DNA of 64,000 bases from a virus (lineage: Duplodnaviria; Caudoviricetes), in the IMG/VR virus record IMGVR_UViG_3300033062_001341, positions 1 through 64,000 of that record, one strand, 5' to 3'. A program made the translations under genes and the position numbers. This document shows, piece after piece, positions 1,052 through 50,745 of the stretch (the stretch's first letter is position 1; the number at the start of each line of letters is the position of its first letter). The notes beneath the pieces are model-generated. The model was not told the DNA's origin. It saw nothing but the letters and a program-made list of their open reading frames with translations, and searched no databases.

Positions 1052-2983
1052 TTATATTAATGTTGCTCCTTTAAAGTAAATATTATTTGCCGAAGCATTT
1101 ATTCTAAATTCTGACGAAGAATATGTCGTATAAACACGATAAGTTCCTTGAGGAATTGTTCCTCCTGTATAGTTCACTGTCAAGTTATAGTATGACGGGT
1201 TCAGATTTCTTGCTATTAATCCGTTTGGATTATTTGCAGTATTAGTTGAAACTTGTGTCATAATCTGACCATTAGTTGACCCTGTTGGAATGTACCATGT
1301 ATACCAAGCGTTAGTTGGTGTAGTTCCTGCAGGAATTTGAGTAGTTTGGAATAGATACGCCGTTATTGGATTATTATAAGCATCGAGACCACCACTTGTT
1401 CGTGAAATTAGACCAGTAATAACTGCAGGTGAGTTTATTGACCATCCTGAGTAGTTTAGGTAAGAATTTATTTGTTGGTTAAACGTTACCGCATTCGCTG
1501 TTGTTGCACCATTAACAAAGAATCCACGAAACGCAGAACCTTGTGATACCATCCAACCGTTGAAGTTAGCGGTTTGTCCTTGTGGTTCAATTGTTAAATA
1601 AGCAAATAACGGTTGATTAGTCGGTGTTGGGGTTGGTGTAGTAGTGGTTGTTACTGTATTGGTCGGAGTTTGAGTTGGGGTTTCGCTTGGTGTTTGAGTT
1701 GGGGTTTCACTTGGTGTTTGAGTTGGAGTTTCTGTTGGTGTATTTGTTGGTGTATCACTTGGTGTATTAGTTGGAGTTTCTGTAACAGTTGGAGTGTTAG
1801 TTGGTGTTTCGCTCGGAGTATTGGTTGGCGTTACGCTTGGCGTATTTGTTGGTGTATTAGTTGGAGTTTCAGTGTTAGTTGGGGTGTTAGTTGATGTTAC
1901 GCTTGGCGTATTTGTTGGTGTAACGCTTGGCGTATTTGTTGGTGTTACGCTTGGCGTATTTGTTGGTGTCTCTGTAGTAGTTGGTGTGTTTGTTGGTGTT
2001 TGTGTTGGAGTTTCTGTTTGAGAAGCAGTAATAGAAGGTGTTGGTGTTTGTGTTTCAGTTGCAGTTGGAGTTTGACCCGCTGTTGCACTCGGAGTTGGTG
2101 TTTGTGTTTGAGTTGGTGTATTAGTTGGAGTTTCTGTTGGTGTATTTGTTGGTGTATCACTTGGTGTATTAGTTGGAGTTTCGGTTTGTGTTGGAGTATT
2201 TGTTGGAGTTGAAGTTGGTGTATTAGTTGGAGTTTCACTTGGTGTGTTAGTAGGAGTTTCACTTGGTGTGTTAGTAGGCGTTTGTGTTTGAGTTTCTGTA
2301 GGTGTATTAGTTGGAGTTTCACTTGGTGTGTTAGTAGGCGTTTGTGTAGGAGTTTCAGTTTGAGAAGCGGTAATTGAAGGGGTTGGTGTTTGAGACGCCG
2401 TTGCAGTTGGTGTTAATCCTATAGTCACACTTGGAGTTGGAGTATTCGTTGGAGTTGGAGTATTTGTTGGAGTTTCTGTTTGAGTGATAGTATTTGTTGG
2501 TGTATTAGTTGGTGTGTTAGTTGGAGTCTCGCTTGGAGTATTTGTTGGAGTTTGTGTTTGAGTTATTGTATTAGTTGGTGTATTAGTTGGTGTTTGTGTT
2601 TGAGTAACTGTTGGAGTAGGTGTTGGCGTATTGCTACCAGTATTTGTTGGAGTTTGTGTATTAGTTGGAGTTAGTGTTGGCGTTTCTGTATTACTTGGAG
2701 TTTGTGTTGGAGTCCCTCCAGGTAAAGTTTGTGATGGTGTAGGTGTTGGCGTTGGTGTTACACATTCCAATGAAATGACTACCCCATTAAACATGTCTGT
2801 TCTCGTATAACCTGAACCAAATAATGATGCATCAATAAAGATACTAAATGGACCTAATGCATTAGAGTTCGAAGCTAGTCTAACGATATACGTTGTACAA
2901 CCTGAAACTGAAACTTGTTGTTCAATTGAAGTGTCGTTACAACCAGGTGCGTTATTTACGACTGAAATATTATAAAGAGACAT
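1052..2983 (-). CDS. Pro/Thr-rich mucin-like virion/fibre protein
   Basis: Track ORF 1052..3013. The likely start is MSLYNIS at 2983, with a TATTTAT motif 17 nt upstream. Small Cys-containing N-domain, about 380 aa of [14 protein letters not shown] repeats, and a globular aromatic-rich C-domain. Confidence 0.8.
1620..2760 (-). repeat. Degenerate tandem repeats (12/24-nt units; TPTNTPS[EV]) encoding the PT-rich linker
   Basis: For example, the near-exact 24-nt unit gttacgcttggcgtatttgttggt occurs three times around 1895-1970; 60-nt near-duplicates around 2245-2345. Confidence 0.95.
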
Positions 2984-3000
2984 CCGCTTATTTTTATTTA

Positions 3001-3007
3001 ATAAATA
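3001..3007 (-). promoter_or_regulatory. TATTTAT putative late promoter motif
   Basis: 17 nt upstream of the ATG at 2983; motif recurs before many structural genes. Confidence 0.55.
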
Positions 3008-3075
3008 CCACAATTATTCTATTTCCTTACTAATAGTTTTAAAAAAATAAAATGAATTATTTTTTAAATTTTTTA

Positions 3076-3495
3076 TCAACAAACTGGATATGATAATTTC
3101 AAGGAATCAACAGAACAACTTGGGTCATTAACTTTTAGCGAATTAATAAAACAACTTGGGTCAGCTAAAGTAACTCCAAAAACACAAGAAGAATTTTGAA
3201 TATTAATGTCAACAACACAACTTTCCATTTCAATTGTAATTTGAAATGCACATCCAAATGTACAATCAAGAATTTTAAAAACTTGGCATCCATTAGCATC
3301 AACTAATAAAAGCATTATTTGTGGAGCAGTATTAAAAATTGAAGGTATTACCGTGTTATAATAAACTGTAGGTGGAACTGTAGTTCCTGTGGCAATAGTA
3401 CCAATCAAAGACTGGTTATTACCGTATATGTCCGATATGTAAACATTAATCGGATTAGTACCTCCTGATATATCTGTAATTCTTATCTGCGTCAT
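3076..3495 (-). CDS. Hypothetical Cys-rich structural protein
   Basis: Track ORF 3076..3504. Likely start is MTQIR at 3495, forming an ATGA overlap with the upstream TGA stop at 3492-3494. Confidence 0.7.
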   Translation of the reverse strand: MTQIRITDISGGTNPINVYISDIYGNNQSLIGTIATGTTVPPTVYYNTVIPSIFNTAPQIMLLLVDANGCQVFKILDCTFGCAFQITIEMESCVVDINIQNSSCVFGVTLADPSCFINSLKVNDPSCSVDSLKLSYPVC

Positions 3496-5624
3496 GTTAA
3501 ACACATTATATCATAGACAATACTCAATTTAATAATAATTTCTTGTCCGTTTAATGAATTATTAGTTCGGCTTGTTTCAATTGTTATTTGATTATTAAGT
3601 TGGTCAATTATAACATTACCAACACCGTTAATACTCAACAACAAACTCTTAATTGTATCATACCATAAATTATCACTTGGCGCGACATTTAAAGAAGTTG
3701 AAGTAAAAAACGTCTGAGTTACCGAAGTACCTAATGGATTAACCATTACTTGTGCATTAAATGTTGCAGTAACTAAATCACAATTAGTATTTCCTGTTGT
3801 AAGGTCAGCAAATCCTTCGTTCATCATTTGAAGTAAACCATACTTAGTTGGTGATTGAACTTGAATTACTTCAGCCCCCATTACATACGTTTCATAAGAA
3901 ACATATGAAGTTGCACAAGTAATTGTTGTACTTCTACTTAGTGTACATCCCGCAGCATCGGTTATAATCAAAGTGTATGTCCCCGCAGTTAATCCTGAGA
4001 CTTGTATTTGTTGTGGATTACCCGAAACGTTATTAGACCAATTATAATTGAATGGTGGAGTCCCTGACGTTATAAAAGAAGTAATTGAACCACTTGAACC
4101 TTCTCCACATGAAGTGGAATATAATGAGAAGTCTAATCTTTCGCTTGGTTGAACGAAAACAACAGATGTTTGAGTACAACCTGTGGCGTCTGTAACCGTT
4201 ACAATATGTTGACCTGAAGCAACATTAGAAAATGTAACAGCGGTTAAACTTGTGTCTATAATATTTGTAATTCCGTCCAACGAAAAATCGAATGGTTCTG
4301 TTCCACCTGTAGTTCTTGTGACAACAATTGTTCCGTTTCGTTGATTACAAGATGTACCTGTAACGTTTGTTGAAATAGTAAATTTATCTTCGGCGAGAAT
4401 TGTTTTCTCATCCATATAATAACAACCTGAAGAATCACTTACGGCAACCGTATATGTTCCTGTTGTGAGAGCTGGAAATATGAAACTTGTTTGAGAATTT
4501 GTAAACGCACTTGTACTTCCATCAGGTTTAATTAATGTATATGTATATGGTAATGTTCCACCAATAACATTTATAAGAATCGAACCATCAATACTTGAAC
4601 ATGTAGAATTAGATGCAATTACCGAAACACTTGAAATACCTTGTGGTGTTTCTAAAGTTGTTCCCGCATTTAATGTACAAAACCCTGCATCTGTAACTAA
4701 GAAATTATATTGACCCGCAGTCAAATTACTAATAGTATATTGTTGAGAATACGATATTAATACGTCTCCAGTTGAGGCTGAGTAATAATATGGTGCAGTT
4801 CCACCTGTTATGATTAAAGTGACACTTCCATTTTGTTGTAAACACGATGGCGTTGTTGCGGTGAACGAACCAAACCCTATTGGGCTAACATTTGTAATAT
4901 TTGTACCACGGCTAAGTACACATCCTTTACTATCAGTAATTTGAACTGAATAGGCACCTGCTGTAAGTCCTGTCAATGTACTTCCTGTTGTACCATCACT
5001 CCAAAGATATGAATATGGTGCTAAACCTGTTTGACCTGTAACAATTATTTTACCTATCGGTGTTCCCCCACAGCTTGAGTTAGGAACGGCGTACAATCCA
5101 AAATTAAATGATGGTGATTCTTCAATAATAAAAGTCTCACTTCTTCCTGTGCAACCACCCAAATCTTGAGCTTCTAAGAAATATGTTCCAGCAGACAGAC
5201 TACCAAAAACTACCGTAGATAAGTTTGTTGCTGCGGAACTAATAAAATTATTAGAACCATCAAATAAATAATAATTTGTTGATGAATAATCTGATGTTGA
5301 GGTTCCTGTAACTGAACCATTGTTAAAGTCACAAGTTGTATTTGAGATACCAACAATACTTGCACAAACACCATCTGAAACAGGTATGTTAATATAAAAT
5401 TCTTGGTTAACAGGTAATGTGGAATCATTGACCCTGATTACATATGTTTCAGGAAATAGTCCGCTTCTTGTTGAAAATGAAACCGCTTGGTCTTCTCCTA
5501 AATTAGGTGTTGTCCATTCAACAGTATATGGCGGTGTCCCTCCTGTAGGTGTTATATTAATCGCTCCCGCTCCTACCGATTGGCAGTCACCTGTTATTTG
5601 TAATATGTAATTGAATTGTGCCAT
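3492..5624 (-). CDS. SprB-repeat (Ig-like beta-sandwich repeat) structural/adhesin-like protein
   Basis: About 7 repeats of the form G(G)TxPYxYxW...LxAGxYxvxvxDxxGC, e.g. GLAPYSYLWSDGTTGSTLTGLTAGAYSVQITDSKGC, resembling Bacteroidota SprB repeats. Confidence 0.75.
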   Translation of the reverse strand: MAQFNYILQITGDCQSVGAGAINITPTGGTPPYTVEWTTPNLGEDQAVSFSTRSGLFPETYVIRVNDSTLPVNQEFYINIPVSDGVCASIVGISNTTCDFNNGSVTGTSTSDYSSTNYYLFDGSNNFISSAATNLSTVVFGSLSAGTYFLEAQDLGGCTGRSETFIIEESPSFNFGLYAVPNSSCGGTPIGKIIVTGQTGLAPYSYLWSDGTTGSTLTGLTAGAYSVQITDSKGCVLSRGTNITNVSPIGFGSFTATTPSCLQQNGSVTLIITGGTAPYYYSASTGDVLISYSQQYTISNLTAGQYNFLVTDAGFCTLNAGTTLETPQGISSVSVIASNSTCSSIDGSILINVIGGTLPYTYTLIKPDGSTSAFTNSQTSFIFPALTTGTYTVAVSDSSGCYYMDEKTILAEDKFTISTNVTGTSCNQRNGTIVVTRTTGGTEPFDFSLDGITNIIDTSLTAVTFSNVASGQHIVTVTDATGCTQTSVVFVQPSERLDFSLYSTSCGEGSSGSITSFITSGTPPFNYNWSNNVSGNPQQIQVSGLTAGTYTLIITDAAGCTLSRSTTITCATSYVSYETYVMGAEVIQVQSPTKYGLLQMMNEGFADLTTGNTNCDLVTATFNAQVMVNPLGTSVTQTFFTSTSLNVAPSDNLWYDTIKSLLLSINGVGNVIIDQLNNQITIETSRTNNSLNGQEIIIKLSIVYDIMCLT

Positions 5625-8623
5625 TAATTAGTGTTACAATTTATATCTATCATTATACCTGTATTTAAACTCACGATTTCATCTAAATTTCTTGGTTCAC
5701 AGGTTAAAGTTGTAATTCTTAAATTATTACCGTTTAAGAAGTATGTAAACCCATAATCGTATAAACTTGGTAAAGCTGCAATTAAAGCGTTCCTCCACTG
5801 TCTATTTGATGGAACATCGGTACTTCCATATCCTGTATAAAATAGTTGGTGTATTACGGTATCTGTTCCTATGTTTAAGTCAACATACCACTGAGATTCT
5901 ATTGAATCCGCAATACATTGTGTTGACGATAAGTTATTTTGAACTAATAGTGCCGTGACTCTGTTATTCAATATCGCACTAAAGTTAGATACGTTTGTAT
6001 CACCGTTCAACCACGGATATATGAAAAAATCAACATACTCAGTTGCACAATTATATTGGAATATGTTACCAATAATATAACAAGGGTCAACAGGTACTGG
6101 TATAAATTGACAACCACGTTGTCTCCTATAAACAAATTTTTGTTTTTGAAGAATTGAGTTTTCATATCTAATACCTCCGTTCCAAATTGTTGTTGCGGGT
6201 ATCATTTGCTCTACTAACTTTAACCAATAGGGACCAATTCCCTCAACGTAGTCAATTAACTTTTGGTATGTGTATTGATTCGTTGGGACATCAGCACCTT
6301 CGGCCTCAATATACTTCCACCACAACGATTGTAGTGTTGGATATCCTCCTGTTTTACCATCAGTAATATATTGTCTATTTCTTGTATTAATCATATTCTC
6401 CCAAAAAGTTTGTGAGAATTCGAAGAACGTTTTTTTCTTTGGCTTAGGGTCAACATACGTCCAATCTACACCACCAGGAACAGGATATCCGACAGTTAAT
6501 CCTGATTCAGGAATAGGATAATCATATTCTCTTGATGTATCCCAAATAGCATAAGTTAAACCTTGTCCTGGATTCATAAATATATCCACGTTTTTAACGT
6601 TCAAGACAAGTTTTTCGTTATCAACAAAGTAATAAGCGTTGTAGTCTCCTTGGGTTGATATTCTAATTTTTTCGTCATCTTTTAACCATGACTTATTATT
6701 ATCAACAATCTTTCTCAACTTAAACCCTTCCGTCATATAAGGAAAATCTCTGAATCTATTCAAATATGTTTGACCATAAGTGAACGGTTGTAATTGAGTT
6801 TGAATATCATAATTTTGTCCTGTGAAAACATTTCCTGTAACCACCACATTATCAGGACTTCTATGTTGTGGAGTTGTTTCATACCAACCAGCTCCTATTT
6901 GGAAGAAGAAAGATTCTGTATCAACAGGAGCTTTAGGATAACCTTCAGCATCAATTGGGTAATCAGATAGTCTTATTGTTGTGTCTTCATAAACTGTAGT
7001 CGTGGTATAGGCTGTGAATGTTTGTCCTTTAACTTTATATGTTGCTCCAGGAATATATGATGGATACTCATTAACATAAGTTCCACCTGAAATTTGAGCG
7101 AATTGGGTTTCAAACTGTTCGAGATTAATTCTTTGGTCAGCCAAATAAATGTGTTCATTATATTCGATTAAAGAATCGGGAGCACCAATCAATCTCATAA
7201 TAAACTCAACAGACCTCCTTGTTCCTTTTGATTTAAACAAGTAAGCAGCGTTTAGAATAAGATTTCTGTAAAAGGCATAATTTATTTCTGTTGGTGTTAA
7301 TGCTCTAGCATAACCTGGATAAGTTGGTGTATTAGTATTACCAAATATTGATTCTAAAAAATTCTCTTCTGTAATTGGTGAAAAGTTAGATGTCCATCCT
7401 AAAGTTTGAGCTAAGTTAACTAATAATTGAGATGGTATATCATTTTCAGGATTGTAATTCACTGAGTTCATGTAAGCCAAAGCATCAATAAATTGCTTAA
7501 CCTCATCAAAACTTCTACCGTAAATTTGAAATACCTTTTCAACCTTTCTACCGAGAGTATCAAATTCTTTTAATGAATCACTTACCAAGAATCTTGAAAT
7601 TAAATTCGTTTTAAAACTATCTAAATTGACCGCAATATCTTGAAGTTGTGTTAGATAATTATCAAAATTGAACGACCTAATATCTAAATTCCATAAACCG
7701 TCTTTTGGCCATGTTACTTCTTGATTGTTAGTATAAAATTGACCGGCTTCATTTTGTTGTGGTACTTGGAAAGTCGCAGTGTATTCAGGTACAACTAATC
7801 TATTAACAAGAAATTTTTCAACCTCATCGAATGTCTCCAAAAACACTTTATCAACAATAAAATCATTTGGTCTTATTACATAATTCAAAAATGTCTCGGT
7901 ATTTCCTGTTCCGAATGGTGCACCTTGAATAAAAAATTCAAGATAACCACTTGTTAAAGTATCTGAAGGTGTGAATCCGACAACTTTAAATAAATTGTTT
8001 TCCCCTTGGTCATTTGTGAATGCTATACAGTAATCAAGATAAGTGTTGTATAAGTTTCTATAAGGAGAGACTTCCAATTCTCTCACACTTAGATTTGTTG
8101 ATGCACTGAAAGAATAATCAATATCGAAAGGGTTATTAAATCTATCAACATTAACTTTGAAATATGTTTCATCTTCAACTGAACTATACGATATATCGTA
8201 TGCAGTTGCGCCAGTAACAAATGAACTGTTGTTGAACAATACGTCAATTGACGCTGGAAAATAATTAATAATTTTTAATACAGAAACGCTAAATCTTTTA
8301 GACAACGCTCCGTACATTGAGAAGTTAAGAACCTGAGAAACATCATAGTTAGGGTATACTCTGAATTGAGTAGCCATAATACGTCTACTTTCAGCCAAGT
8401 CTTCGATATTCATACTATCGAGAGTCATCGGTTCTGAGAACGCACCTACGTTAAACTTTCTATTAACCTTTTCAGTTATTCCAGTAGTGAACTCGAAATT
8501 ACCTTGCGTCAGACCACCACCTTGTACGGTTTGTAAACCAACAATGTTGTCGGAGAAAGTCGCTGCCCCACTACCCGGTCTCGGCGGATAAAAAAATTTT
8601 GTACTTTTTATCGTTGTTGCCAT
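5624..8623 (-). CDS. Baseplate wedge protein (P2 gpI / T4 gp7-like domain), 999 aa
   Basis: Contains LLVNLAQTLGW...RNLILNAAYLFKSKGTRRSVEFIMRLIG, the LAxxLGW/KGT signature of Tail_P2_I/gp7-like wedge proteins; lies in the structural cluster. Confidence 0.6.
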   Translation of the reverse strand: MATTIKSTKFFYPPRPGSGAATFSDNIVGLQTVQGGGLTQGNFEFTTGITEKVNRKFNVGAFSEPMTLDSMNIEDLAESRRIMATQFRVYPNYDVSQVLNFSMYGALSKRFSVSVLKIINYFPASIDVLFNNSSFVTGATAYDISYSSVEDETYFKVNVDRFNNPFDIDYSFSASTNLSVRELEVSPYRNLYNTYLDYCIAFTNDQGENNLFKVVGFTPSDTLTSGYLEFFIQGAPFGTGNTETFLNYVIRPNDFIVDKVFLETFDEVEKFLVNRLVVPEYTATFQVPQQNEAGQFYTNNQEVTWPKDGLWNLDIRSFNFDNYLTQLQDIAVNLDSFKTNLISRFLVSDSLKEFDTLGRKVEKVFQIYGRSFDEVKQFIDALAYMNSVNYNPENDIPSQLLVNLAQTLGWTSNFSPITEENFLESIFGNTNTPTYPGYARALTPTEINYAFYRNLILNAAYLFKSKGTRRSVEFIMRLIGAPDSLIEYNEHIYLADQRINLEQFETQFAQISGGTYVNEYPSYIPGATYKVKGQTFTAYTTTTVYEDTTIRLSDYPIDAEGYPKAPVDTESFFFQIGAGWYETTPQHRSPDNVVVTGNVFTGQNYDIQTQLQPFTYGQTYLNRFRDFPYMTEGFKLRKIVDNNKSWLKDDEKIRISTQGDYNAYYFVDNEKLVLNVKNVDIFMNPGQGLTYAIWDTSREYDYPIPESGLTVGYPVPGGVDWTYVDPKPKKKTFFEFSQTFWENMINTRNRQYITDGKTGGYPTLQSLWWKYIEAEGADVPTNQYTYQKLIDYVEGIGPYWLKLVEQMIPATTIWNGGIRYENSILQKQKFVYRRQRGCQFIPVPVDPCYIIGNIFQYNCATEYVDFFIYPWLNGDTNVSNFSAILNNRVTALLVQNNLSSTQCIADSIESQWYVDLNIGTDTVIHQLFYTGYGSTDVPSNRQWRNALIAALPSLYDYGFTYFLNGNNLRITTLTCEPRNLDEIVSLNTGIMIDINCNTN

Positions 8624-17897: not shown

Positions 17898-19736
17898 TTA
17901 TGAGAACGTAACGGATTGGAAGTTCTTAACAGATACTCTAATATCCTTATTAGGATATCTAATTTGATAAACCTGTGAAGGTTGTGCAAAGATTGTATCG
18001 TCAACTGGTCTGATTAATTTTGTTTCAGGGTCAGCATAAACCATCGAGGTTTCTGCGGATGAATATTGTCCCCCAACTTCATTATAAATATCAAGACCTG
18101 CAACTGTTAACACTCCATTTAGATTTTGAATAATGCTTCTGATTTCGGATAGATAGATATTCTGACCAAGTTGTCTTGTTTGAGGATTGAAGTATGTTGA
18201 TACTGCATCGATAACAGACGAAATAATTTGACCTGAGTTTTGAGCCGCGTCTAAAACAATTGAAACATCAACACTTACATCAATTACTTCAGCGGTAAAT
18301 ATTGAAATGTAATCGTTCATCATTCTATAGTTAGATAGATAATTTGCAATATTTTGTTTCAAGGTATTAGATACAATATTCGTTAATTTTCCCGAAGTAT
18401 CGTATGATAATATTTGAATCATTATTTTATTATCGTTTTCAGTAATAGATACTTTTGCAGGTGCTCCGAACTGAGCTGGCATGTTTCTAATAATCGATTC
18501 GTAATCTTGGACTGTCACAGCTCTCTTTTGTGCTGAGAAGTTGAATGATACGTAGTTTCTAATTTCTTCAATTGTTGGTACACCTGCTCCACCAATAGCT
18601 GCCGTTACGTTATTACATCTCAAAGAATTAATCACCGATGAGTTAGTTGCCTCTGAAGGTCCGTTAACAAAGAATGATACAGTACCAATTTGATTGATTA
18701 CGTTCGTACCTAAGTTGGTTTGTAATCCACCTCCAACTCTATACTGAATAAACAGTGTTGAGTTTGGTGATAACGCAGCCCCTAATGAAACGTTATTAGA
18801 ATATCTCTGAAGTTCTAATGTTGTTCCTAAAGTAGTGAATTGGTCTAAAGCATCTTGAGCGGTATTTGTTCCACCACCAAATGTCATTTTCTTAAATCCT
18901 TCTGCGGTAAATTCACTGATAAATCTATCTTGTGTTTGGATATATCTACCAACTTTAATACCAGGCTGGTCTGAAACTTTTGTTGGGTCTTCAATAAAAA
19001 CTCTATCTTCCGCTAAAGCATCTACCTCGTACCATCTGTTAGTCACCCCCAAAAATTCAGCTGATGTCGGTACGTTCGTGTATTCGGTTCCGTCTTTTAA
19101 TAGAACACTCGTGATACCTAAAACATTCTTTTCAGGTAAAAATAATTCAAAGAATGGTTTTACGTCATTTGGTGTGATAACTCTTTTGAACACTTTGGTA
19201 ATACCATTAACAACAACCTCTCTTTTTGTGATTGTGTAATTTACTAATATACCATTGGCGTTGAAGTTGGGAATCTTTAATCTGTTAGGGAAACCTTGAG
19301 CGTTATATGGTGATGTAAAATCAATATCATATTGGTTTTCGAAAACCAATCCAGCACCAATAACTTGAGACCCTCTCAACAAAGTACCAAGATATCTCTC
19401 ATCCTCTTTATCACCAAATGCGGGTACTGTAATTGAGAAATCAACCAAAGAAACTGAAGGTCTTTGACCCGGTAACTTTAGACCGTATGTTCTGGCAATG
19501 TTATAAATTGACGACTTTTGTTGAGCATACTGAAGAACTGTCTCTTGTATACTTCTATCAATGTGATAGTGTAAATTATCTGCAACAGCGGCATTCAAAT
19601 CTAAGAACACTGAGAAAACTGAAGCGTCATTAAAATCCTGAATTAAGTCAGGATAGTAAGTTCTAACATAGTTTAACAGTTCGGTTCTTATTCCTTCGAA
19701 GTCTCGGGTTGTGTATGATATCTTACGATTAGCCAT
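17898..19736 (-). CDS. Baseplate wedge subunit (T4 gp6 / baseplate J-like)
   Basis: N-terminal YTTRDFEGIRTEL...DFNDAS...LDLNAAVADNLHYHID...AQQKSSIYNIARTYG and C-terminal AQKRAVTVQDYE are gp6-family hallmarks. Confidence 0.9.
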   Translation of the reverse strand: MANRKISYTTRDFEGIRTELLNYVRTYYPDLIQDFNDASVFSVFLDLNAAVADNLHYHIDRSIQETVLQYAQQKSSIYNIARTYGLKLPGQRPSVSLVDFSITVPAFGDKEDERYLGTLLRGSQVIGAGLVFENQYDIDFTSPYNAQGFPNRLKIPNFNANGILVNYTITKREVVVNGITKVFKRVITPNDVKPFFELFLPEKNVLGITSVLLKDGTEYTNVPTSAEFLGVTNRWYEVDALAEDRVFIEDPTKVSDQPGIKVGRYIQTQDRFISEFTAEGFKKMTFGGGTNTAQDALDQFTTLGTTLELQRYSNNVSLGAALSPNSTLFIQYRVGGGLQTNLGTNVINQIGTVSFFVNGPSEATNSSVINSLRCNNVTAAIGGAGVPTIEEIRNYVSFNFSAQKRAVTVQDYESIIRNMPAQFGAPAKVSITENDNKIMIQILSYDTSGKLTNIVSNTLKQNIANYLSNYRMMNDYISIFTAEVIDVSVDVSIVLDAAQNSGQIISSVIDAVSTYFNPQTRQLGQNIYLSEIRSIIQNLNGVLTVAGLDIYNEVGGQYSSAETSMVYADPETKLIRPVDDTIFAQPSQVYQIRYPNKDIRVSVKNFQSVTFS

Positions 19737-19741
19737 CTATC

Positions 19742-20212
19742 TTAAATATTGATAATTAGAAAATCACTCTGAGAAAACGTTTGGGCATTAACTGAGTAAT
19801 CTATTTTTATTTTTGCAGTATATTCTGATGTTCCTTTACCGGGGAATCTGTATATTGAAGATTCACTAGTCCCAACAAAATTTTGACCCGTCGCAATATC
19901 AACTTCTTCTTGTGGGTCAGCCGGTGTAATTGTTATATTATTGAGTAATAGATTCGGCATAAAATTTTCAACTGCATCTCTAATATCTGATTCAATAGCA
20001 TTAAAAGTAAGTCCATCAAATGGTTCAAAAAGAAATTCATACAATCTTGTACCAAATGTTGGTAAATAATATCTTGAACCCTTTCTAGTTAAAAGAAGAT
20101 GTAATAGACTTGACTTAATTGCATCCCTTTGAAATTCGGTTAATCTTAAGTAATCTCCTCTTAGTGAATCCGCGAATGGAAATTCAAGACCATATGTTAT
20201 ACCATTTGCCAT
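19742..20212 (-). CDS. Baseplate wedge protein gp25-like (GPW_gp25)
   Basis: AIKSSLLHLLLTRKGSRYYLPTFGTRLYEFLFEPFD motif. Real start is probably MANG at 20212, not the track's 20287. Confidence 0.9.
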   Translation of the reverse strand: MANGITYGLEFPFADSLRGDYLRLTEFQRDAIKSSLLHLLLTRKGSRYYLPTFGTRLYEFLFEPFDGLTFNAIESDIRDAVENFMPNLLLNNITITPADPQEEVDIATGQNFVGTSESSIYRFPGKGTSEYTAKIKIDYSVNAQTFSQSDFLIINI

Positions 20213-20217
20213 ATCAC

Positions 20218-20224
20218 ATAAATA
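20218..20224 (-). promoter_or_regulatory. TATTTAT putative late promoter motif
   Basis: 5 nt upstream of the ATG at 20212. Confidence 0.5.
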
Positions 20225-20232
20225 TACATGGA

Positions 20233-20445
20233 TTAATTTTTTCTTAAAGAGATACTTCCTCTTGTGTGTTTGGGGTCGTAAGGACAATGTCTACAATAAT
20301 TACCACAACATGAACCTCTTCTTATGTGAAATTGTGCAGTAAATATAAGTCTGTCACCTTCCATGTAATAATCAGAAGGGAGGAGTTTTTTTGACTCCTC
20401 CCTCTTATTATTATCTATTTCCGTGGATTGAACTATAGATTCCAT
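20233..20445 (-). CDS. Small Cys-rich protein (DUF5522-like)
   Basis: YYMEGDRLIFTAQFHIRRGSCCGNYCRHCPY motif (RGxCCGxxCRHCPY). Confidence 0.7.
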   Translation of the reverse strand: MESIVQSTEIDNNKREESKKLLPSDYYMEGDRLIFTAQFHIRRGSCCGNYCRHCPYDPKHTRGSISLRKN

Positions 20446-20479: not shown

Positions 20480-22336
20480 TTATTTAATTTCGCAAGCACC
20501 CCCCGCACATGCTAGTTCACCACTTAAATCTGTATCATCGTGCATTTCAACGATTTGAGATAAATCAACATCGTGAAGAGACTTCATCAAATCATCATAT
20601 TTTTCTTTGGTACAATCTTCAAACGGTGCTTGAATATAACTACCTCCGTCATATGGTAAACAAGATAAACCATTATAGTATTCTTTGTTATCCCACATCC
20701 ACTCACCAACTGCTGGCCACTCATGTTCTCTAATTGAGATAGTTGCCGATACGTTATGTGCATTGTTTCCATTTCTATGTCCTGGTTTAATCCACTCTTG
20801 TTGAACTTTTTTCACCCTCTCCAACAATTGGATTGGTGATTCGTTTCTTAAGATTGACCCCTCAGGTGCTTTTTGTGGAATTCCAATAACCGCTGTGTCG
20901 TGTGGTCTGAAGTATTCATCTTCAACTAATTCAGGATGATTAATCTTCAAGTGTGAATAAATTGCTTCGTTCTTTCCAACTCTAACTCTTCTAATATAAT
21001 AATCATTGTGCCAAGCGTGAATACCTGAAGATGTTCCTAATGTTAAGGATGTTGTTCCCGCAGGTTTAACAGTTGTTGTTCTTGCAGAAGGATTAATTTT
21101 TATTAACTCAGCAACTATTTTGTTTTCTTCTTTTACAACTTTAGCCGCCGCTTTCATATTCAAACCTAAAACCGCCCCTGAACCGATACCTGTCATTGAA
21201 ATTCCAATTAACGCATCTTTTTCAGTTGTTCTTTGCCAAATTGGTCTTAAGTAGTGGAAGTTAGTATATCCCGCTTGTAATGTACCAATGAATGATGCCG
21301 CTCTAACTCTAGTCTCATAATCTTCTTGTGAAGCAACGTTAGATACGTTAACCTCCGTAAGATTACAGAATTGAAATGGTCTTAATGCGATTTCACAACA
21401 AGGGTTAGTTCCCCAATCTTTATCATTACTTAAGTAGATACCAGGTTCACCAGCTCCACTCGCTTCGATTCTCTTCCATAAATCCATGAAATAATCTTTG
21501 GTGATTTTGTGTCTCATCAAAACTGCAGAGTTATTAGCTCTACCTCTTTGTGGATTTTTTTCCCACCACGCTCCACTTTTACAACCAATCATTTCTTCAT
21601 CAGTCGCTGAAAATAATGAGATAAGAGCCGCTCTTCTGATACCACCAGCTAACACCGCATCTGCAATATGACAAACGATATCATGAACTTCAATTGGTTT
21701 TAATTTTTCACCATTGTGTTTTGAATCTAAGATTCCTTCAACTTTAATTAAACATTCTTTTAGTGGTTGAGGACCAGGGGCTTTACCACCTGAAGTGATA
21801 AGTCTTGCACCTTTTGGTCTGATGTCACTAAAATCAAATTCAATTTTAGAACCACCGAAGAAGTATGATTTAACCAACACTTTTACTGCGTCAGCCCATC
21901 CTTCGATTGAATCAGCAACTAACCATCTTCTACCTCTTTCTTTATTCGGTTTTCTAATTTCAGGTAAAACATCAACGTGATGTTTTTGTACTGAATAACC
22001 AACTCCTGTTCCACCTAATAATAAGAACATAATTTCTGAAAATACTCTCCAATCATCAATCGGGGCAAATGCACAGTTATAAATTCTGTTTGGTGAAATC
22101 TCGATAGGTTTTCCTGCAAATTGCATTGACCTCATTGATGGAAGAACCTCTTTGTTATAAACAAACTTGTAGTTCTCTCTGATTTCATTCTCTAATTGTG
22201 GATACTGCTTAATATGCATCTCCATGTTTCTTGTCACCAACTCGTGCCAAGTTTCTCTTCTTTTTAACTCAGGGATATACTTCGCGTATTTCATATACAC
22301 TGTAATATCCGATAAAATCCTGTTTGAAATGTCCAT
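20480..22336 (-). CDS. nrdJ: Class II (adenosylcobalamin-dependent) ribonucleotide reductase
   Basis: IYNCAF, GTNPCCEIAL (thiyl-radical NPCxE), QFCNLTE, TTVKPAGTTS and C-terminal CAGGAC. No NrdB partner nearby. Likely start is MDISN at 22336. Confidence 0.9.
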   Translation of the reverse strand: MDISNRILSDITVYMKYAKYIPELKRRETWHELVTRNMEMHIKQYPQLENEIRENYKFVYNKEVLPSMRSMQFAGKPIEISPNRIYNCAFAPIDDWRVFSEIMFLLLGGTGVGYSVQKHHVDVLPEIRKPNKERGRRWLVADSIEGWADAVKVLVKSYFFGGSKIEFDFSDIRPKGARLITSGGKAPGPQPLKECLIKVEGILDSKHNGEKLKPIEVHDIVCHIADAVLAGGIRRAALISLFSATDEEMIGCKSGAWWEKNPQRGRANNSAVLMRHKITKDYFMDLWKRIEASGAGEPGIYLSNDKDWGTNPCCEIALRPFQFCNLTEVNVSNVASQEDYETRVRAASFIGTLQAGYTNFHYLRPIWQRTTEKDALIGISMTGIGSGAVLGLNMKAAAKVVKEENKIVAELIKINPSARTTTVKPAGTTSLTLGTSSGIHAWHNDYYIRRVRVGKNEAIYSHLKINHPELVEDEYFRPHDTAVIGIPQKAPEGSILRNESPIQLLERVKKVQQEWIKPGHRNGNNAHNVSATISIREHEWPAVGEWMWDNKEYYNGLSCLPYDGGSYIQAPFEDCTKEKYDDLMKSLHDVDLSQIVEMHDDTDLSGELACAGGACEIK

Positions 22337-22469
22337 TTTGTAAATTTTAAGGTGTAGATATTTTATTAAAAAATCAACGATTTTTATGATAAATATGTGT
22401 TCGAATACCAATCGACCAGCAAATTTAATAAAAAAAAATAAGTTTTTTGTGAAAAAAGTGTATATTTAA

Positions 22470-28608: not shown

Positions 28609-31600
28609 TTAAGTTTTTAAGATTTTGAACTTGTACGATGTGTTTATTTGTTTTTTATTTTTGTCTGTTGGTATTGTTGTTAAGAACACTCCTCCAAGTA
28701 TTTCCTTTGTTTTTTGGATTTCTTCTTTTGTAAATTCTCCGCTGTTTTCTATTATATCATCAATATCAAGTGAGCTAATAGAAAATAATTGTCCTCTATT
28801 TAAAACATATCCAGTCTTTGTGAATCCAGCTTCTCCAATTAACACCTTTTTTATTGAATTGTTTGCACCTATCTCATAACCAAATAATTGTAATTGTATA
28901 TTCACGCTCTCGTTTATAGTCCATGTACCAACTTGATTGTCTGTATTCACATTAGCCTTTATGTTTACCATAGTTCCTGTTGGAAGTGTTGTAATTGTTT
29001 CAAGTAAAACTTTAGGTCCTGTTTGTCCGTCGTTGAATGTAGAGCTCTCATCATTAGCAATTTTTGTTTGGTCTTGTTGACTCACATTAGTTGTATTTTT
29101 TGGTATCGCGGAGCCGAGAGTATTTGTAGTCGCAGGGTCATAAGTAAACTTACCACTACTTGTCGCATTACCAAACTGACCTTTAACGGAAACCTCAATA
29201 CCTTGTGTTGTATTTATCGTTACTTTAGGTACTGTAACAATAATCTGAGTTCCGTCTTTAGATTTTATAAGTCCTTTAATAACCTTGACATTACCATTGA
29301 ATGTAACCTCTGTTACTGAATCAAGTTGTTTTCCTTTAATAGTTAAAATGGTATTCTCACCACCTAAGGTAGGAGTAAACGATGTTATAGAAGGTGGTAA
29401 ACATGCACTAGTTCCTGAAGTACCACTAGTACCAGAAGTTCCAGCAGTACTACTTGTACCAGACGTTCCTGATGTACCACTAGTACCAGAGGTTCCAGCA
29501 GTGCCACTTGTACCAGACGTTCCTGATGTACCACTAGTACCAGAACTTCCATTAGCACCATCCAAGTCAGGCAATCCTAAACTATTTGCCGATTTAATCG
29601 CCTTCTCAAAAGTTTCTTGTACTGTTTTAAATTCTTTATCTTTGTTTGTATCGTAATACTGCTCAGTTAAATTAGAAATTGGCCAATAACAAACATAATA
29701 CTTTATTAATCCCAATTGTGTTATTCTTTTAATGTTAGGTTGTAATTTCGAAATCATGAAATCAATGAATCTACCTACATTTTCAAAGTTTGCAATTGGT
29801 AAAATATTAGTACTTGTTTTTGTTGTTGAATTAGTCTTAGCAACATCTAAACAAACATATTTCTTTTGGGCTTGAGTAAAATATACATTGTTATTACCGT
29901 AATCTAAATCTAATGTTACAGACGCAAAGTTATTATTTACACCCACAAATGTTGATGTTTTAGGTCCAGGTTGATTAGTTCTAACATAACAAATACAGTA
30001 AATAATTGTCTGAAGTATTCCATTAGTTGTTTTAGAAACAATTGCATCTTTGAATGCTTTTGCATCCAATGATGTTGTTTGAGCAACATCCGTAACCCAT
30101 CCCTGCTCACTGTATATCGGATTTAACTTTGCAGTACAAGAATTTTGTTCCGCAGTTTTTGCCGCTGCCTCTTGAACTACTTTAGCAGCCTTATTAATAT
30201 CAGTCGATGCAATTGCAGGATTAGGCGGTTCGTCTTTTTTGTTCAATACTGCTTGTTCAATTTTAGTTAAAAGATTTTGATTTATACTTTGTAAGAAGGT
30301 ATCAATTGCCGGTAAATCAAACATACCTTGTCTAACACCTGTAAGTGTTGTTTCAAAACCACCAGGACTAATAGCATGAGAAACATCCGTAATCATATAT
30401 GGTCCATTAAACATCGGTACGTGTTGTAAATTAAAATACATTGTAGGTTGCAATAACGCATTTCCTAAACATTGTACCGTACACTTATAACTTCTTTGTT
30501 TATACAAATTATACAAACTAACGTTTTGAGTTGCAACATTTCTACCATTCGCTTGGTTAATCATATTCAACTCGGTATTAATTGATTCGGATGTTGCTTT
30601 ACCAGCTTCTTGAGAAACTTGAAACGAATAGAAAACATTTTGATTTCTTATTCCTATCTCAACATTAAAACCAACACACCTATTTGACAAACCATAATCC
30701 TTCTTATTTTGCATATTCTCAATTAAAGGATTTTCAGACGCTCTTCTCATCTCGAAACTATCATCTCTAAATCTAAAATTACCTTTTGGTAAGTTCAAAT
30801 ACTCTGAAGGTTTACCAACATAAAAACAAATCATTTTTGGACCTGAGTCTCTGTAATCAACATTTAAAAATGTTCCCCACATATTGTTAGCAAACTGTAA
30901 TGAACCTTCACTTTTCGTGAAATTAACACCTGTAACGTCTTGTACGTTGTAGAAGTTAACATATGCTGGTAATGGCATAACATTAAAGTTATTCTTAATT
31001 AAAATTCCACTAATCAATGTGAATACGCTCATTGATTCGGTATAGGCGTTTTGGTTTAAAACATTTTGTAAATCAAATATATCTATGATAACTGTGTCAC
31101 CGATGTTTCTTGAAGCTCTGTCTAAGAACAACATATCTTCAAATAACGTTTTTGTTTTGTAGTCTCCACCAGCAATCCATTTGTCATTAAGAGCTTTAAA
31201 CATTTCATAGTTTTCAACTTTGGATTGTTGTCCGTCTATAACTGATTGAATTACTTTTTCAGGTAGTTGTGATTGTTCAGGTAGTTTCGCTCTGACTGAA
31301 GACATTGTATCATTTATTATAAGACTTTGTAAATTACTACCATTTGAAATAAACTCTGTGATTTGATTTTTAAATGATGTACTTGTTATCGATGGGTCTA
31401 ATAACTTTCTTGTCGCATATATCTTAATTAATTGTGATAACAACGTGATGTTTTGAACCGTGAACGCAACGTTGTTATCAACAAAGAAGTCTGTAATATA
31501 TGAACCTCTATCGGTGTATATCAAGTTTTCTATTGTTGAAAATCCTACCTCAGTTTTCAATGCCGCCCATTGTGTCGAATAACTCGCCTGACTTTGAGCA

Positions 31601-34600
31601 AGACTAATATTACCCCCCAATGTTGGTAACGTTCCTTTTTGATAAACCCCGAAGTTAATTGGGTCTATAACGTCATTAATGAATGAGTTGAAAACTCTTC
31701 TATTATAATTTCCAGGATTACCGTATCTCAAAAGGACATCATACTCCATAAAACTTTTTATGTTAGATGCAAACACTTGTGCTTGAGTCGCCGCTGTGTC
31801 TTTAAAATATTGTTCTTCTGTTCCCCCGTTTTGAGCTGGTACTGTCATCAAAGTTCTCATCAACGCTTGGAAATTCTTAAAGTTGGCATTGGTATCTATT
31901 GGTGATTGTCCAAGACCTACAATACTTAAAGCTCCGTTTAAAGTGTTGTTCGGTTTACAGAAACTTAAAAACTCTTGTTCAAACTGATTTAAAATTGACT
32001 TATCGAACACAGAAAAAATTTCTTCTATCTTAGTGTAAGTATCACCTGAAAGAAGCGTCATTGGTGATTGATTCGAAGATAATGTTTCATTTAAAGATAG
32101 TGGATTAATATAATTCATATAAGAATCCGGCTTTGGTTTAACGATTGTTGTCGAATCGAAATACCCATAGTTAGGTGCTGCCCATAGTGTTCTGACACTT
32201 CCGTTATACATTGATTGGTTACTACTTAAATTAACAACAGTCTTATTGTTACTAATACATTGTGCCGCTGTCTGATTGAGTACGGTACCAAAAGAAGGTA
32301 CAACATAATATTCCAATCCAACTGTATTATTAGCGGGAACACAAACATCCGCCGTTTTCGTTGAGTTATCTATTAAGTCAGGTATCATAACACTAAAAGG
32401 CTTAACATCAACGTATCTATCTCCTTGAAGAACCGAGTTTATGTTCGATTCTTTAATTGAGAATAACTTCATCCCTCTATTTAAACTTCTTTGAATTTCT
32501 TCGTTTGTATAGTTTTGATATAAATCATATCCATTGTAGAAGTAGTTGAAATCATTAACAACTTTAGGATAGAATCCATTTTGTATTGTAATTCGGGTTG
32601 TTGTTTCGCTTTGAAGAACAATTTTTTCTGTTCTAATTTGTCCATCAACACCTTTCACTTGATAACTATATTCATGAGCGACTGAACCTCCTATTGGGTC
32701 GTAGTTGGTAATATAATTAAAGTTTGTCCACGCGGTATCTAATATATCAACACCTGTTTCTGTATATCTTTTATATCTATGCCAAATAGAACCCATCTTC
32801 AATATCCAAGCGTAGGGCACCTTATGCAGTGCTCCAAATTTTTTGAATACCGACGCCATATAGTCCAAGTCAGTAGTCTTACCATTCTCATATGTCTTAT
32901 ATCTTTCTCTTAATGAAATTAGTGGTAAAGAATTAATAAACAGATAAGCTCCTTGAACATACGGATATAGGTCACTTCTTCTTTGATTATAAACACCATT
33001 TTGAATTGCATTTACAAAAAATGGTGTATTAATAATTGATGTTGTTGTTTGGGCTGTAAAAGTCGATACTGGTGATGGAAAATAACAATATCCCTCAGTT
33101 GGGTAAAATTCGTCTTGTCCTCTAAAACTATAAAAGAAACTTAACGTATTATTTGATAATCCATCTGAAGGGTTAGAAACTTTCAAATATGAAAAGTTTG
33201 TTACTGGTCTGTTAACACTATAATTTGTTATATCATTGAAATTAGCAATAACATTATTATCCGAAAAAACTTTATATGTTTTATTTGTATTATAAACTAA
33301 ATCATTAGTATTTTTAGGTGAAGTATCCATATTACGTAAACACCATGTAGGGTCAGTAAATGGATACGTATCTAATAACATTGGAGTGTTATACGCCCCC
33401 TTAACAATCTCAGTTAAAGCCTTTGGGTCTGGTGCGGCTACTGGTATTTTTCCTGTATTATTTACATCCAAAATAGAGAATGAAGTTTCAGTAATCGCCT
33501 TAAGATATGGTGTGATGTAGAAATCTCTTATGAAGTCTTGATATGCTCTACCAGTTCCTTGGTTGGAAATTGTTTGTAATGTGGTTTGGAAATTTGAGGC
33601 ATTAATATCTAAGTTCTTTAACTTTACAGTCAAATACGGAGAACTTCCTCCTAAACTTTTAACAATATTTGATGACTCACAAAGTGTGTTATATTTTTGA
33701 AACACGTCCGTACCGTTGTTATTCCCTAATAGTCTTACATAATTTGAATAAAACGCCGTAATATATTGTCTCTCCCAAATTTCATAGAAGAATTTAATCT
33801 CTTCCTTATTAAGATATGCTATACCCTCATTTGGAAATTCAATCGCATTAACGTTAGTTATTATTGTTTTGTTTTCCGCACCTATTGACGGTTGGCTAAG
33901 AGGATTTTGAAATTTTTGAGTTAGTCCTCTCATATATTCTTCAACGAACTCAACCTCAGGCCATTTATCATACAGATAACCTTTAGTCAGATTAACCACA
34001 GAAGGGTCTGCAAGATACTTCAATTGGAATCTACCCTTTTTATCTTCAGGGGTTTCCACAAAAAATTGAGGCCAAGGATAAACGGGAATTTGAGAGGTAG
34101 ATAAACCTTGATTTGATTGCTGTGCAGACGTTGATATCTTAACAACCTGTACAGTATCTGAGCCAGGTGCAGATGATGGATTGTCTAATATCGCTGCCTT
34201 TCTAATTGGGTCGTATTTTACATTCCATGCATTAGTATGAACATCATCCATCAATCTAATAAACGCCTCAGCAGATGCCATAAGTACAGCAATAACATTT
34301 CTCACTGTAGGTTTAAAACCTAATCCTGTTGCCTTATCTTCGATTTTTCTTGCTAAGTCAGCAGACAATAGTGTTTCCGCCTCCGATAATTTAGCATTAG
34401 CTTGTGTCTCCATGTTGGCAATATTCTTGTCAAACTTTTTGTCACCTTCAAATATAATAAATTGTGGGAAAACAATATTTGTGAACGAAGTAAGAGTTGC
34501 ATTTTTTTCGACCTCGAATGCCGGTTTTAACTGCTTAAGTAGTTTTGTTACAACGTTCAACTTATCCTGTTCTGTTGGCAAAACAATACCTGTTTGACTT

Positions 34601-35997: not shown

Positions 35998-36310
35998 AAT
36001 AATAAAAATAATTTTCTAACGCACCTTTATAGTCCTGTAATGAAGCTATAAGCGGAAATGGAATAATCAATACTGCACCGTCATAAATATTATTTTCTAA
36101 TCCACCAAATTCAGGATTTGCTTGTAATATTAACCAACTAAAGTATGGAGCATTATAAAATTCTTGAGAAACTTTATCCAACCTACTTCTACCTACTTTA
36201 TAAATAAAAGTTTGGTCTGTTGGTTTTGATGGTATATTAACAAAAGGCACAACAGTTTGTTCACCATTGATGATGAATTCACTGTATCGATTATAATATG
36301 AATATGCCAT
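35987..36310 (-). CDS. LysM-like baseplate protein (T4 gp53 / P2 gpX-like)
   Basis: YKVGRSRLDKVSQEFYNAPYFSWLILQANP...GAVLIIP is the typical tail-X/LysM pattern. Confidence 0.8.
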   Translation of the reverse strand: MAYSYYNRYSEFIINGEQTVVPFVNIPSKPTDQTFIYKVGRSRLDKVSQEFYNAPYFSWLILQANPEFGGLENNIYDGAVLIIPFPLIASLQDYKGALENYFYYYGR

Positions 36311-48600: not shown

Positions 48601-48868
48601 GTTGTAAATAAGATTTTGCAATATATGCCGCCTCATACTTAGGGATTTGTGTGTTCACGAATTTCACAGGTTCTGTACCACCGAAATAGGCTTGGAACTC
48701 ATCATAGTTAGTTATAAAAATTGGTTCGAAAGCGGGGCCTTTTATAGTTTCCCCAACCACACCTAAAGTTGTTACACCCACGCTTTGGGCTACGAACGAT
48801 AAGTCCGTTTCAGAAGTGTATACACCAGGTGAAACGTACACCTTTTTGTTTGCTTGTGCTGTTGCCAT
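45668..48868 (-). CDS. Tail sheath protein (T4 gp18-like), enlarged to 1066 aa
   Basis: N-terminal VYVSPGVYTSETDLS...LGVVGETIKGPAFEPIFITNYDEF; C-terminal PWFASAGYTRG, INPIATF, IFGNKTLQ, LNVRRLL, IYLKPTKALEFIDIEF. Confidence 0.95.
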   Translation of the reverse strand: MATAQANKKVYVSPGVYTSETDLSFVAQSVGVTTLGVVGETIKGPAFEPIFITNYDEFQAYFGGTEPVKFVNTQIPKYEAAYIAKSYLQQSNQLFVTRVLGLSGYDAGPSWSISVTANVDPLTIGFTSSSAATPFTATFTGTASGNTIVFLDTTELPSQVETNLNVQYRLSDGSTSTLQDDFNTYISQIADSTTLSANTSVIYGSIPSEDWYSLVNQYSNLKNVYDVPGDGEIEYNDLSSGSNDAWYYANFENYTGDNYSGYSFDYIVNTLSINGDVVTGTISGNTYSFSGTAYSEYNNMVVATLRSRGIALFTNSSASENHGPIYQTTGLTMVCDGAYSGVSKDPYGTFLISGVTDDNNTFQFETSLLASSSKYLTKVFGVDNFGKSRFTVPVFVEESYQSSLNIAYSQGYIKGINCNLIDLPDARSQSGTSIAYNLERYQSPETPFLVSELRGNKVYDLFKFISISDGNAANTEVKVSIANLSFNNMSFDVLVRNFFDTDASPVVIEKFTNCNLDPLSNNFIGVKIGTSNGEYALLSKYVMVEMSPTAPIDAIPCGFRGYTQREYFNVSEYPSPYIQYKTKYFFPGETIANPPFFGNLTNTESAGDIVRRSYLGFSTQYGVDEAFLQYKGKQNPPNWINDPLQEGAPWNVVSKGFHMDSGATVVTIATSFQTSGQTAFECGDADFRTDPEFQENPYYFIYARKYTVCFAGGFDGWDIYNERRTNEDRFQLGANGYLAGSSPSSRYPNATGEGLFKRIVVQNNTQDFANTDYYAYLLGILTYANPESTNINVFATASIDYINNSNLCEEAIDMIQYSRADSVYIVTTPDYRLNLPDANNPELVIYSQEAVDNLDNTGIDSNYTATYYPWILTRDTVNNTQIYLPPTGEVCRNLALTDNISFPWFASAGYTRGLVNSIKARQKLTQEDRDTLYQGRINPIATFSDVGTVIFGNKTLQVADTALNRLNVRRLLLQARKLISAVAVRLLFEQNDQIVRQQFLDSVNPILDSIRRDRGLYDFRVTVSSSPEDLDRNTLTGKIYLKPTKALEFIDIEFFITPTGASFENI

Positions 48869-50700: not shown

Positions 50701-50729
50701 TTGATAAATACTTTAATTATAATTATATT
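50701..50729 (+). promoter_or_regulatory. Sigma70-type promoter TTGATA-N17-TATATT for the SET-SET-SNF2 operon; overlaps the minus-strand TATTTAT motif (50704-50710) of the gp14-like gene
   Basis: -35 at 50701-50706, 17-nt spacer, -10 at 50724-50729; same architecture as the SSB promoter. Confidence 0.6.
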
Positions 50730-50745
50730 TAAAGTAAAATTTTTT

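Follow-up and report, generated by a model that had tools for sequence, protein, structure and literature searches.

A jumbo phage tail-region protein with a long Thr/Pro stalk between two folded modules, a candidate tether for a distal binding domain

What might a bacterial virus gain from a protein in which 382 consecutive residues are mostly Thr and Pro? The question is raised by a gene on the minus strand at 1052..2983 of virus record IMGVR_UViG_3300033062_001341, within the 64,000-nucleotide (nt) stretch analyzed here (the window, positions 1–64,000 of an 80,897-bp virus contig with a CheckV completeness of 26%). Judged from its sequence, the encoded protein of 643 amino acids (aa) is a modular, adhesin-like phage protein with an extreme Pro/Thr linker and a tip domain that has neither a name nor a known fold. 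The reading that we favor, to which we assign a probability of about one half, is that of a modular particle tether, in which an N-terminal domain would sit on the distal tail or fiber apparatus, the stalk would hold a distal binding domain at the C-terminus, DNA repeats would drive changes in stalk length and the stalk would probably be O-glycosylated.

The list of open reading frames (ORFs) gave a single ORF for the gene, 1052..3013 (−), which encodes 653 aa from a TTG codon; the ATG at 2983 gives the 643-aa protein and is the start in the orthologues too, where stop codons lie three codons upstream and the TTG at 3013 is unused. The stop codon occupies 1052–1054. In 20-residue windows the composition changes sharply at residues 76 and 458 and is ordinary on either side, which divides the protein into an N-domain with three Cys (aa 1–75, 2759..2983, −), a Thr/Pro stalk (aa 76–457, 1613..2758, −) and a 186-aa C-domain (aa 458–643, 1055..1612, −). 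The sequence-only reading had proposed about 380 aa of Thr/Pro repeats between two small globular ends, and the layout agrees with both statements: the tract measures 382 aa, the C-domain is predicted as a compact fold with a mean predicted local distance difference test (pLDDT) score of 96.4 and the N-domain, 68–80% identical across six orthologues, likewise appears to be a folded unit. The stalk consists of 43.7% Thr, 21.5% Pro, 9.2% Asn, 6.5% Ser, 6.3% Gln and 5.0% Glu (Thr, Pro and Ser together 71.7%), is net acidic and is free of Lys, Arg, His, aromatic residues and Cys. Across the full 382 residues, Thr occupies 83% of the positions in one dipeptide phase and 4% in the other, so that the earlier remark that every second residue is Thr proved literally true, and three orthologue stalks keep one Thr phase over 288–459 residues (92–95% versus 1–3%). 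Such tandem Thr/Ser/Pro repeats are those of mucin-type (PTS) domains, while the composition, the two conserved flanking modules and the variable length are those of Pro/Thr-rich interdomain linkers. A polyproline-II helix rises 0.31 nm per residue; in that conformation the stalk would be long, non-globular and acidic, with a contour of ~118 nm, and could give the C-domain access to a large volume or carry it through a capsule or slime layer. Database families contributed little: Pfam and NCBIfam hold no family for the protein, profile scans of the window ORFs against Pfam gave it no match to a known fiber family, and its sole PHROG match, phrog_15511 (function not known), sits on the stalk. 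The N-domain profile had no match among Protein Data Bank (PDB) sequences at E ≤ 10, and in the ESM Atlas neither the N-domain nor the C-domain reached a score of 0.9, the lower rows (CBM_4_9, PPC and T9SS-associated) being leads only.

The C-domain represents a phage domain family without a name. It was found in 34 proteins of 358–898 aa by a word-indexed search, and a search of 1.84 billion proteins returned relatives in 170 cluster representatives at E ≤ 1e-3 (107 at E ≤ 1e-10), labeled hypothetical in all sources. Architecture was counted in 180 fetched sequences in which the C-domain could be located, with 165 near-complete matches and 139 proteins with enough upstream sequence. In 151 of the 165, no more than 15 residues separate the C-domain from the C-terminus; a Thr/Pro/Ser-rich stretch stands immediately upstream of it in 96 of the 139, and a Thr/Pro tract of 20 aa or more is present in 111 of the 139. 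Across the family the tract is 0–651 aa long (median 94), which places the window's protein, with 390 marked residues, near the top.

At the DNA level the stalk is a nest of overlapping arrays, for which Tandem Repeats Finder reported periods from 6 to 102, every one a multiple of 6. Two exact 60-nt copies lie 402 nt apart at 2123..2182 and 1721..1780 (both −), three exact copies of 23–27 nt with period 24 (TNTPSVTP units) lie at about 1895..1969 (−), and further exact copies of 35–38 nt occur at offsets 60 and 84. Against 200 shuffles that preserved both protein and codon usage, 31 exact repeats of at least 20 nt were observed versus a mean of 6.2 and a maximum of 24, and the longest exact repeat was 60 nt versus a shuffle maximum of 36 nt; the 24-nt and 60-nt duplications first described as near-exact are exact and exceed what coding constraint yields. 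Sequencing runs were examined as short assembled contigs (Logan). In the probable source run these cover the reference exactly, with breaks inside the stalk repeats, and the 60-mer forms its own contig at a depth of 45.7 compared to ~22 in its flanks, a roughly twofold depth that fits two real copies. Three freshwater runs contain apparent stalk 'joints' with sides of 21–39 nt at 90% likeness, and other Thr/Pro genes also map to the tract. These three runs also hold contigs ~95% identical to the C-domain region (for example, 24 differences over 1101–1639), and close relatives occur in other freshwater studies.

Comparison among relatives bore out the earlier proposal that repeat number changes. 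Orthologues of 549, 597, 720, 752 and 768 aa were found beside the 643 aa of the window, and the marked Thr/Pro length in these five varies from 296 to 468 aa, so stalk length is not invariant. In the closest orthologue the stalk is collinear with that of the window and differs by indels, with 86% identity over 378 aligned positions and with 80% and 93% identity in the N- and C-domains, respectively. A more distant orthologue group provides a further case: seven sequences 97–99% identical differ in length only by stalk indels of 10, 20 or 30 aa (380, 390 and 410 aa, plus one N-truncated copy), which shows expansion and contraction between very close alleles of relatives. As the stalk is an (X-Thr)n polymer, indels come in whole X-Thr pairs; slippage or unequal recombination among the 6n-nt repeats could then shift reach in small steps. 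The closest orthologue also carries an additional globular domain of ~105 aa within the stalk, and some orthologues share such a domain (L002, about 4540–4850; L006, P0017 and P0019); the window has none, and 'SQTLPGG' at the corresponding place may be a deletion scar.

Whether the stalk is decorated with sugars was approached through the glycosyltransferase (GT) genes of the same contig. A cassette at 60275..64000 (−) comprises an HtrL/GT2 gene, a gene for a 293-aa protein of no assigned family, a GT25 gene and the start of a gene for a PF11397 enzyme that extends to contig position 64820. Four more genes with Thr/Pro linkers lie on the same strand beyond the window, at contig 65511–72088, and are followed downstream by a homing-endonuclease-like gene, the PF11397 gene, the GT25 gene, the 293-aa gene and the HtrL/GT2 gene. 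The 421-aa enzyme matches Pfam PF11397 'Glycosyltransferase (GlcNAc)' with E 1.7e-66 and 225 bits against a cut-off of 21, and bears a DSH (DxH) motif; NCBIfam returned no match for it. PF11397 is a family that we take to correspond to CAZy GT60. In a survey of GT-A enzymes, GT27 and GT60 have DxH in place of DxD and share polypeptide Ser/Thr O-glycosylation (PMC7185993). The contig thus holds a candidate initiating polypeptide N-acetylhexosaminyltransferase, as a mucin-type system would need. In Trypanosoma cruzi, a GT60 enzyme starts mucin glycans on Thr, and the mucins contain 46–54% Thr, 6–11% Pro and 10–13% Asx (PMC3769586); the acceptor is Thr-dominated and contains Pro and Asx, like the stalk (Thr 44%, Pro 21% and Asn 9%). 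GT60 mucin systems differ in operating in the eukaryotic Golgi on secreted proteins, whereas the phage enzyme would work in soluble form on a protein of the phage. The secretory route of mucin-type domains does not appear to be used here: in the first 30 residues of the protein hydrophobic runs do not exceed 2 and basic residues are absent, which is not signal-peptide-like, and any glycosylation of the stalk would therefore be cytoplasmic.

The association between this enzyme and Thr/Pro proteins was examined in the best 80 of 366 PF11397-enzyme relatives in a viral collection. Thr/Pro ORFs lie directly upstream on the same strand in 77 of the 80 loci, the remaining three having no upstream DNA, and in most of the 80 the last Thr/Pro ORF ends within ~100 nt of the enzyme; because the enzymes are 84–99% identical and form a single lineage, this amounts to one observation of conserved synteny and not to a repeated association. 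In the window's contig an endonuclease VII/HNH-like gene (contig 64880–65488; L007 3877–4467) is inserted between the Thr/Pro cluster and the PF11397 gene, and a paralogue lies at window 53293–53967. Four cultured jumbo phages of Xanthomonas/Stenotrophomonas encode an enzyme 44–47% identical to that of the contig. One of them, XacN1, is a jumbo myovirus whose ORF334 is 46% identical to the contig's enzyme, with downstream GT genes similarly arranged and with Thr/Pro tracts of 75–175 aa in ORF370, ORF372 and ORF384; it differs in lacking, by tblastn, a homologue of the target protein or of the C-domain. The XacN1 report describes at least two Schiff-stained bands in virions, proposes the two glycosyltransferases of the phage (one being ORF334) as the cause and states that no tail fibers were seen on the particles (PMC5852040). 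A degenerate DNA pattern for TPTxTPTxTP was present in five of five enzyme-carrying records (4–27 matches each; reversed control 0) and in none of five large phages without the enzyme. A PF11397 match was found in none of the five contigs that carry orthologues of the target gene, which are 8–12% fragments in which the control also gave nothing. Phage-encoded glycosyltransferases do modify capsid proteins in mycobacteriophages (Freeman et al. 2023, as cited in PMC11256854), where the modified proteins are, by that account, major capsid proteins; here the candidate is instead the 382-aa stalk of a fiber-region protein, and the enzyme family is different.

O-glycosylation of the stalk is, by this analysis, plausible at about even odds. 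The case is circumstantial and draws on the GT60-like cassette, its linkage to other Thr/Pro genes and the staining in a cultured relative. The stalk would be modified in the cytoplasm by the phage-encoded PF11397/GT60-like enzyme together with extender transferases, and any glycans on the stalk would make it stiffer, shield it and guard it against proteases. The alternative that survives best keeps the same architecture and virion role and takes the tract as a plain, unglycosylated Pro/Thr spacer, with the transferases serving DNA, the host envelope or other proteins. Many bacterial proteins use Pro/Thr linkers as extended spacers with no enzyme dedicated to them, and Pro/Thr-box linkers join the modules of bacterial glycoside hydrolases such as CenA and Cex of Cellulomonas fimi, which the stalk resembles in composition, in its place between folded modules of which one would bind and in its length variation. 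It departs from those linkers in being many times longer, in its strict X-Thr phase and in belonging to a cytoplasmically made protein of a tail gene block with no catalytic module. The ~60 kb between the cassette and the target gene would suit a spacer, as would a second GT block of GT1-like, GT2/GT4, GT2, FkbM-methyltransferase and GT11-like genes, since dUTPase/dCTP-deaminase-like and exonuclease genes lying among them leave a role in DNA modification open. We nonetheless regard the plain spacer as unlikely, given the membership of the enzyme in a polypeptide-transferase family, the 77 of 80 loci, the glycoprotein staining of XacN1 virions and an X-Thr phase free of Lys and Arg that looks like selection beyond spacing.

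Which end of the tether is fixed was addressed by following the two terminal modules through related genomes. In a complete 321-kb relative the protein encoded at the same slot has 495 aa and combines this N-domain and a Thr/Pro stalk with different small distal domains, and two other relatives have no gene at that slot; among the large relatives the C-domain is found in none of five and a 999-aa neighbor in all five. Elsewhere in the contig a 1474-aa Thr/Pro protein has a 641-aa N-module that recurs with 62% identity in a protein from another phage; the protein of the contig ends in two LamG domains and that of the other phage in the C-domain. N-modules thus stay while C-terminal modules are exchanged, which puts the C-domain where a lectin-like LamG domain can stand. 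The C-domain itself occurs behind at least five unrelated N-terminal modules, the small ones among which look like a set of attachment pieces. We presume that the N-domain is the virion anchor, as it is conserved at the slot even where the distal domains differ, and it would dock the protein on the distal tail or fiber apparatus; the C-domain is probably the distal binding module, a circumstantial assignment that comes from the architecture, namely the swap with LamG domains. Recombination within stalks could exchange whole distal modules between phages.

Modular phage receptor-binding proteins combine a conserved N-terminal anchor with an exchangeable C-terminal tip, and such an arrangement was found here. 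The modular logic therefore appears to be that of a receptor-binding protein in which a low-complexity stalk, instead of a trimeric shaft, serves as the connector. The likeness extends to the slot-fixed N-domain, the swapped distal modules and the position of the gene at the variable end of a tail block; the differences are that no trimeric shaft is evident and that the tip has no known fold. The sequence-only picture of a bottle-brush stalk presenting a binding domain is accordingly retained in part: the stalk does lie between two folded modules with a conserved C-domain at the free end, while 'bottle-brush' and 'binding' remain circumstantial. The opposite polarity, with the C-domain as a common particle anchor and the N-terminal modules as exposed, variable ends, would account for one C-domain behind at least five unrelated N-modules, one of them LamG-like at its end, as one anchor with many heads, and the capsid-binding domain of T4 Hoc is C-terminal. 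We find this arrangement improbable, because this lineage retains the N-domain at the slot while C-terminal modules are replaced or lost, and because the 641-aa N-module ends in either the C-domain or two LamG domains, so that the C-domain occupies a known binding-domain position. Between Thr/Pro linkers, a further domain of ~80 aa ending in '...YSNG.AWY.VTGG.G.ITSSDPNGC' recurs (L094 5459–6943 and L007 4508–5605, both −); it had no match among Pfam families, the one collection searched for it.

Placement of the protein on the particle was considered from the gene neighborhood. Profile scans of 43 ORFs identified tail sheath, tube, baseplate hub, gp25-like, Baseplate_J and collagen-like fiber proteins, and T4-type replication genes are present (family B polymerase, gp32, UvsX-like recombinase and DnaB-like helicase). 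Identity of the sheath to its counterparts in cultured phages does not exceed 32%, and the genomes of complete relatives measure 317–326 kb, one with terminal repeats; the contig comes from an uncultured jumbo myovirus. Every gene from the Baseplate J-like and gp25-like genes (17898..20287, −), which head this tail gene block, down to position 1 is on the minus strand, and the target gene is second to last. Its downstream neighbor, 19 nt away, is a collagen-like fiber gene cut by the contig end (1..1032, −), and 92 nt upstream lies a gene for a 142-aa protein (3076..3504, −), of which residues 7–81 are homologous to the N-module of other phages' C-domain-terminated proteins (43% identity, E 7e-12). 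Next follow a 710-aa SprB-repeat protein (3492..5624, −), conserved in the gene string, and the conserved 999-aa protein (5624..8623, −), which marks the syntenic slot in complete relatives with 73–76% identity. The order of 999-aa protein, 710-aa SprB-repeat protein, 124–139-aa protein, target and collagen-like fiber was the same in five of five related contigs, whose target orthologues carry C-domains 79–93% identical to that of the window.

The gene thus lies within a tail and baseplate module, as that of a tail fiber would, and this gene order leads us to infer that the protein is virion-associated. A soluble or released late product, such as a decoy, a matrix or cell-surface binder or a lysis or dispersal aid, could be read from the two ends, which resemble binding modules more than classical fiber shafts. 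Set against this are the position between conserved same-strand fiber genes, with gaps of 19 and 92 nt and in five of five loci, and the N-terminus described above, whose lack of a hydrophobic run and of basic residues makes export unlikely; we give a non-particle role little credence.

The C-domain was then taken as the candidate tip and modeled. A single-sequence prediction was useless (pLDDT 34), and a prediction with a 68-sequence alignment reached a pLDDT of 96.4 and a predicted template modeling score (pTM) of 0.92, giving a mixed alpha/beta sandwich. Foldseek of the C-terminal ~185 aa, a check suggested by the sequence-only reading, yielded no PDB match at E ≤ 1e-3 and, in a viral library, another member of the same family only. 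The best VIA-align row, an accessory domain of a dextranase, had a Z of 5.1, below the noise level that the tool states for unmatched models. A PDB profile search with the C-domain alignment gave 8zvk_A, a glycosidase linker, as its sole match, which was rejected as it covered linker columns only. We treat the C-domain as a new or very divergent binding-type module that would act as the free distal end of the tether, most likely toward a host-surface or environmental glycan. An enzyme delivered on a tether, for instance a depolymerase or esterase, is very improbable: the highest-ranked structural rows, which are weak, are C-terminal domains from dextranases and related glycoside hydrolases (Z 4.4–5.1), yet these are non-catalytic accessory beta-sandwiches below the noise level, and the near-invariant residues (Gly, Phe, Tyr, Pro, Trp, Thr and one Asp) form no catalytic set.

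Several points weigh against the tether reading as a whole. The tight linkage of glycosyltransferase and Thr/Pro genes involves other Thr/Pro genes and a single lineage, hence a single evolutionary observation, and the PF11397 gene lies ~60 kb from the target gene. The Schiff-stained bands of XacN1 are not assigned to particular proteins; the five-versus-five pattern test covers few records, which are not independent of one another; and the transferases could serve DNA or host-surface modification instead. The C-domain model matches no known lectin or carbohydrate-binding module fold (best Z 5.1, below noise), and a Thr/Pro stalk is unlike the trimeric shaft of classical tail fibers. By tblastn, neither the target nor its 999-aa neighbor has a match in 50,697 phage records, and no cultured phage among them carries the gene; the only match of the SprB-repeat neighbor in those records is one uncultured 642-kb phage. 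Literature searches found no description of Thr/Pro-stalk phage fiber proteins, and a search for 'PF11397' found an unrelated mention only.

A bolder form of the tether reading, which we hold tentatively and below even odds, sees mucin-type glycoproteins made in a bacterial cytoplasm: up to ~167 Thr of an (X-Thr)191 stalk would be loaded with glycans, giving ~100-nm tentacles tipped by a lectin-like domain of new fold, with reach tuned by slippage and with the four other Thr/Pro proteins contributing to a particle 'glycocalyx'. Should the tether reading be correct, lake jumbo phages of a widespread lineage would carry their binding domains on very long tethers that readily change length, in contrast to the rigid trimeric fibers that dominate models of phage adsorption, and the glycosylated form would be a counterpart in bacterial viruses of eukaryotic mucin-type glycoproteins. 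The stalk and the candidate enzyme could provide a simple bacterial system for defined O-glycosylated polymers. The C-domain, a compact and well-predicted module in 170 clusters with neither name nor solved fold, is a clear target for structure determination and glycan-binding assays.

Further features were noted around the gene and across the window. A promoter scan gave no signal above shuffles (7 versus 8.9), and three of five predicted terminators are the stalk repeat on the noncoding strand. No tRNA was found in a search of the window, and the SprB repeats give only a hint of a Bacteroidota host. In the 142-aa neighbor, residues 82–142 (window 3076–3330, −) form a Cys-rich tail with a recurring 'SC' motif, which is shorter or missing in the 114–124-aa versions of relatives. 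The contig of the window and five related contigs (L002–L006 ends) stop inside or just past the collagen-like fiber gene, whose Gly-X-Y repeats seem to be where short-read assemblies of the lineage break.

Among the tail genes, two giant ORFs of 2462 and 1676 aa lie amid the tail and baseplate genes (window 28609–35997 and 36310–41340, −); the former has a collagen-like stretch near residue 2150, and Thr/Pro linkers occur in neither. The tail sheath protein (window 45668–48868, −) is 1066 aa long, with the sheath-family match confined to the last ~250 residues, leaving an N-terminal part of ~800 aa. On the plus strand, two adjacent SET-domain proteins of 147 and 123 aa (window 50701–51515; Pfam SET E 8e-15 and 1.5e-16) directly precede an SNF2-family helicase and may be phage-encoded lysine methyltransferases. 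In a 512-aa protein (window 53982–55520, +) the first 230 residues make up a full Fe/Mn superoxide dismutase, and ~280 more follow without a family match. Directly between the baseplate and replication genes lies a gene for a B12-dependent (class II-like) ribonucleotide reductase (window 20480–22411, −).

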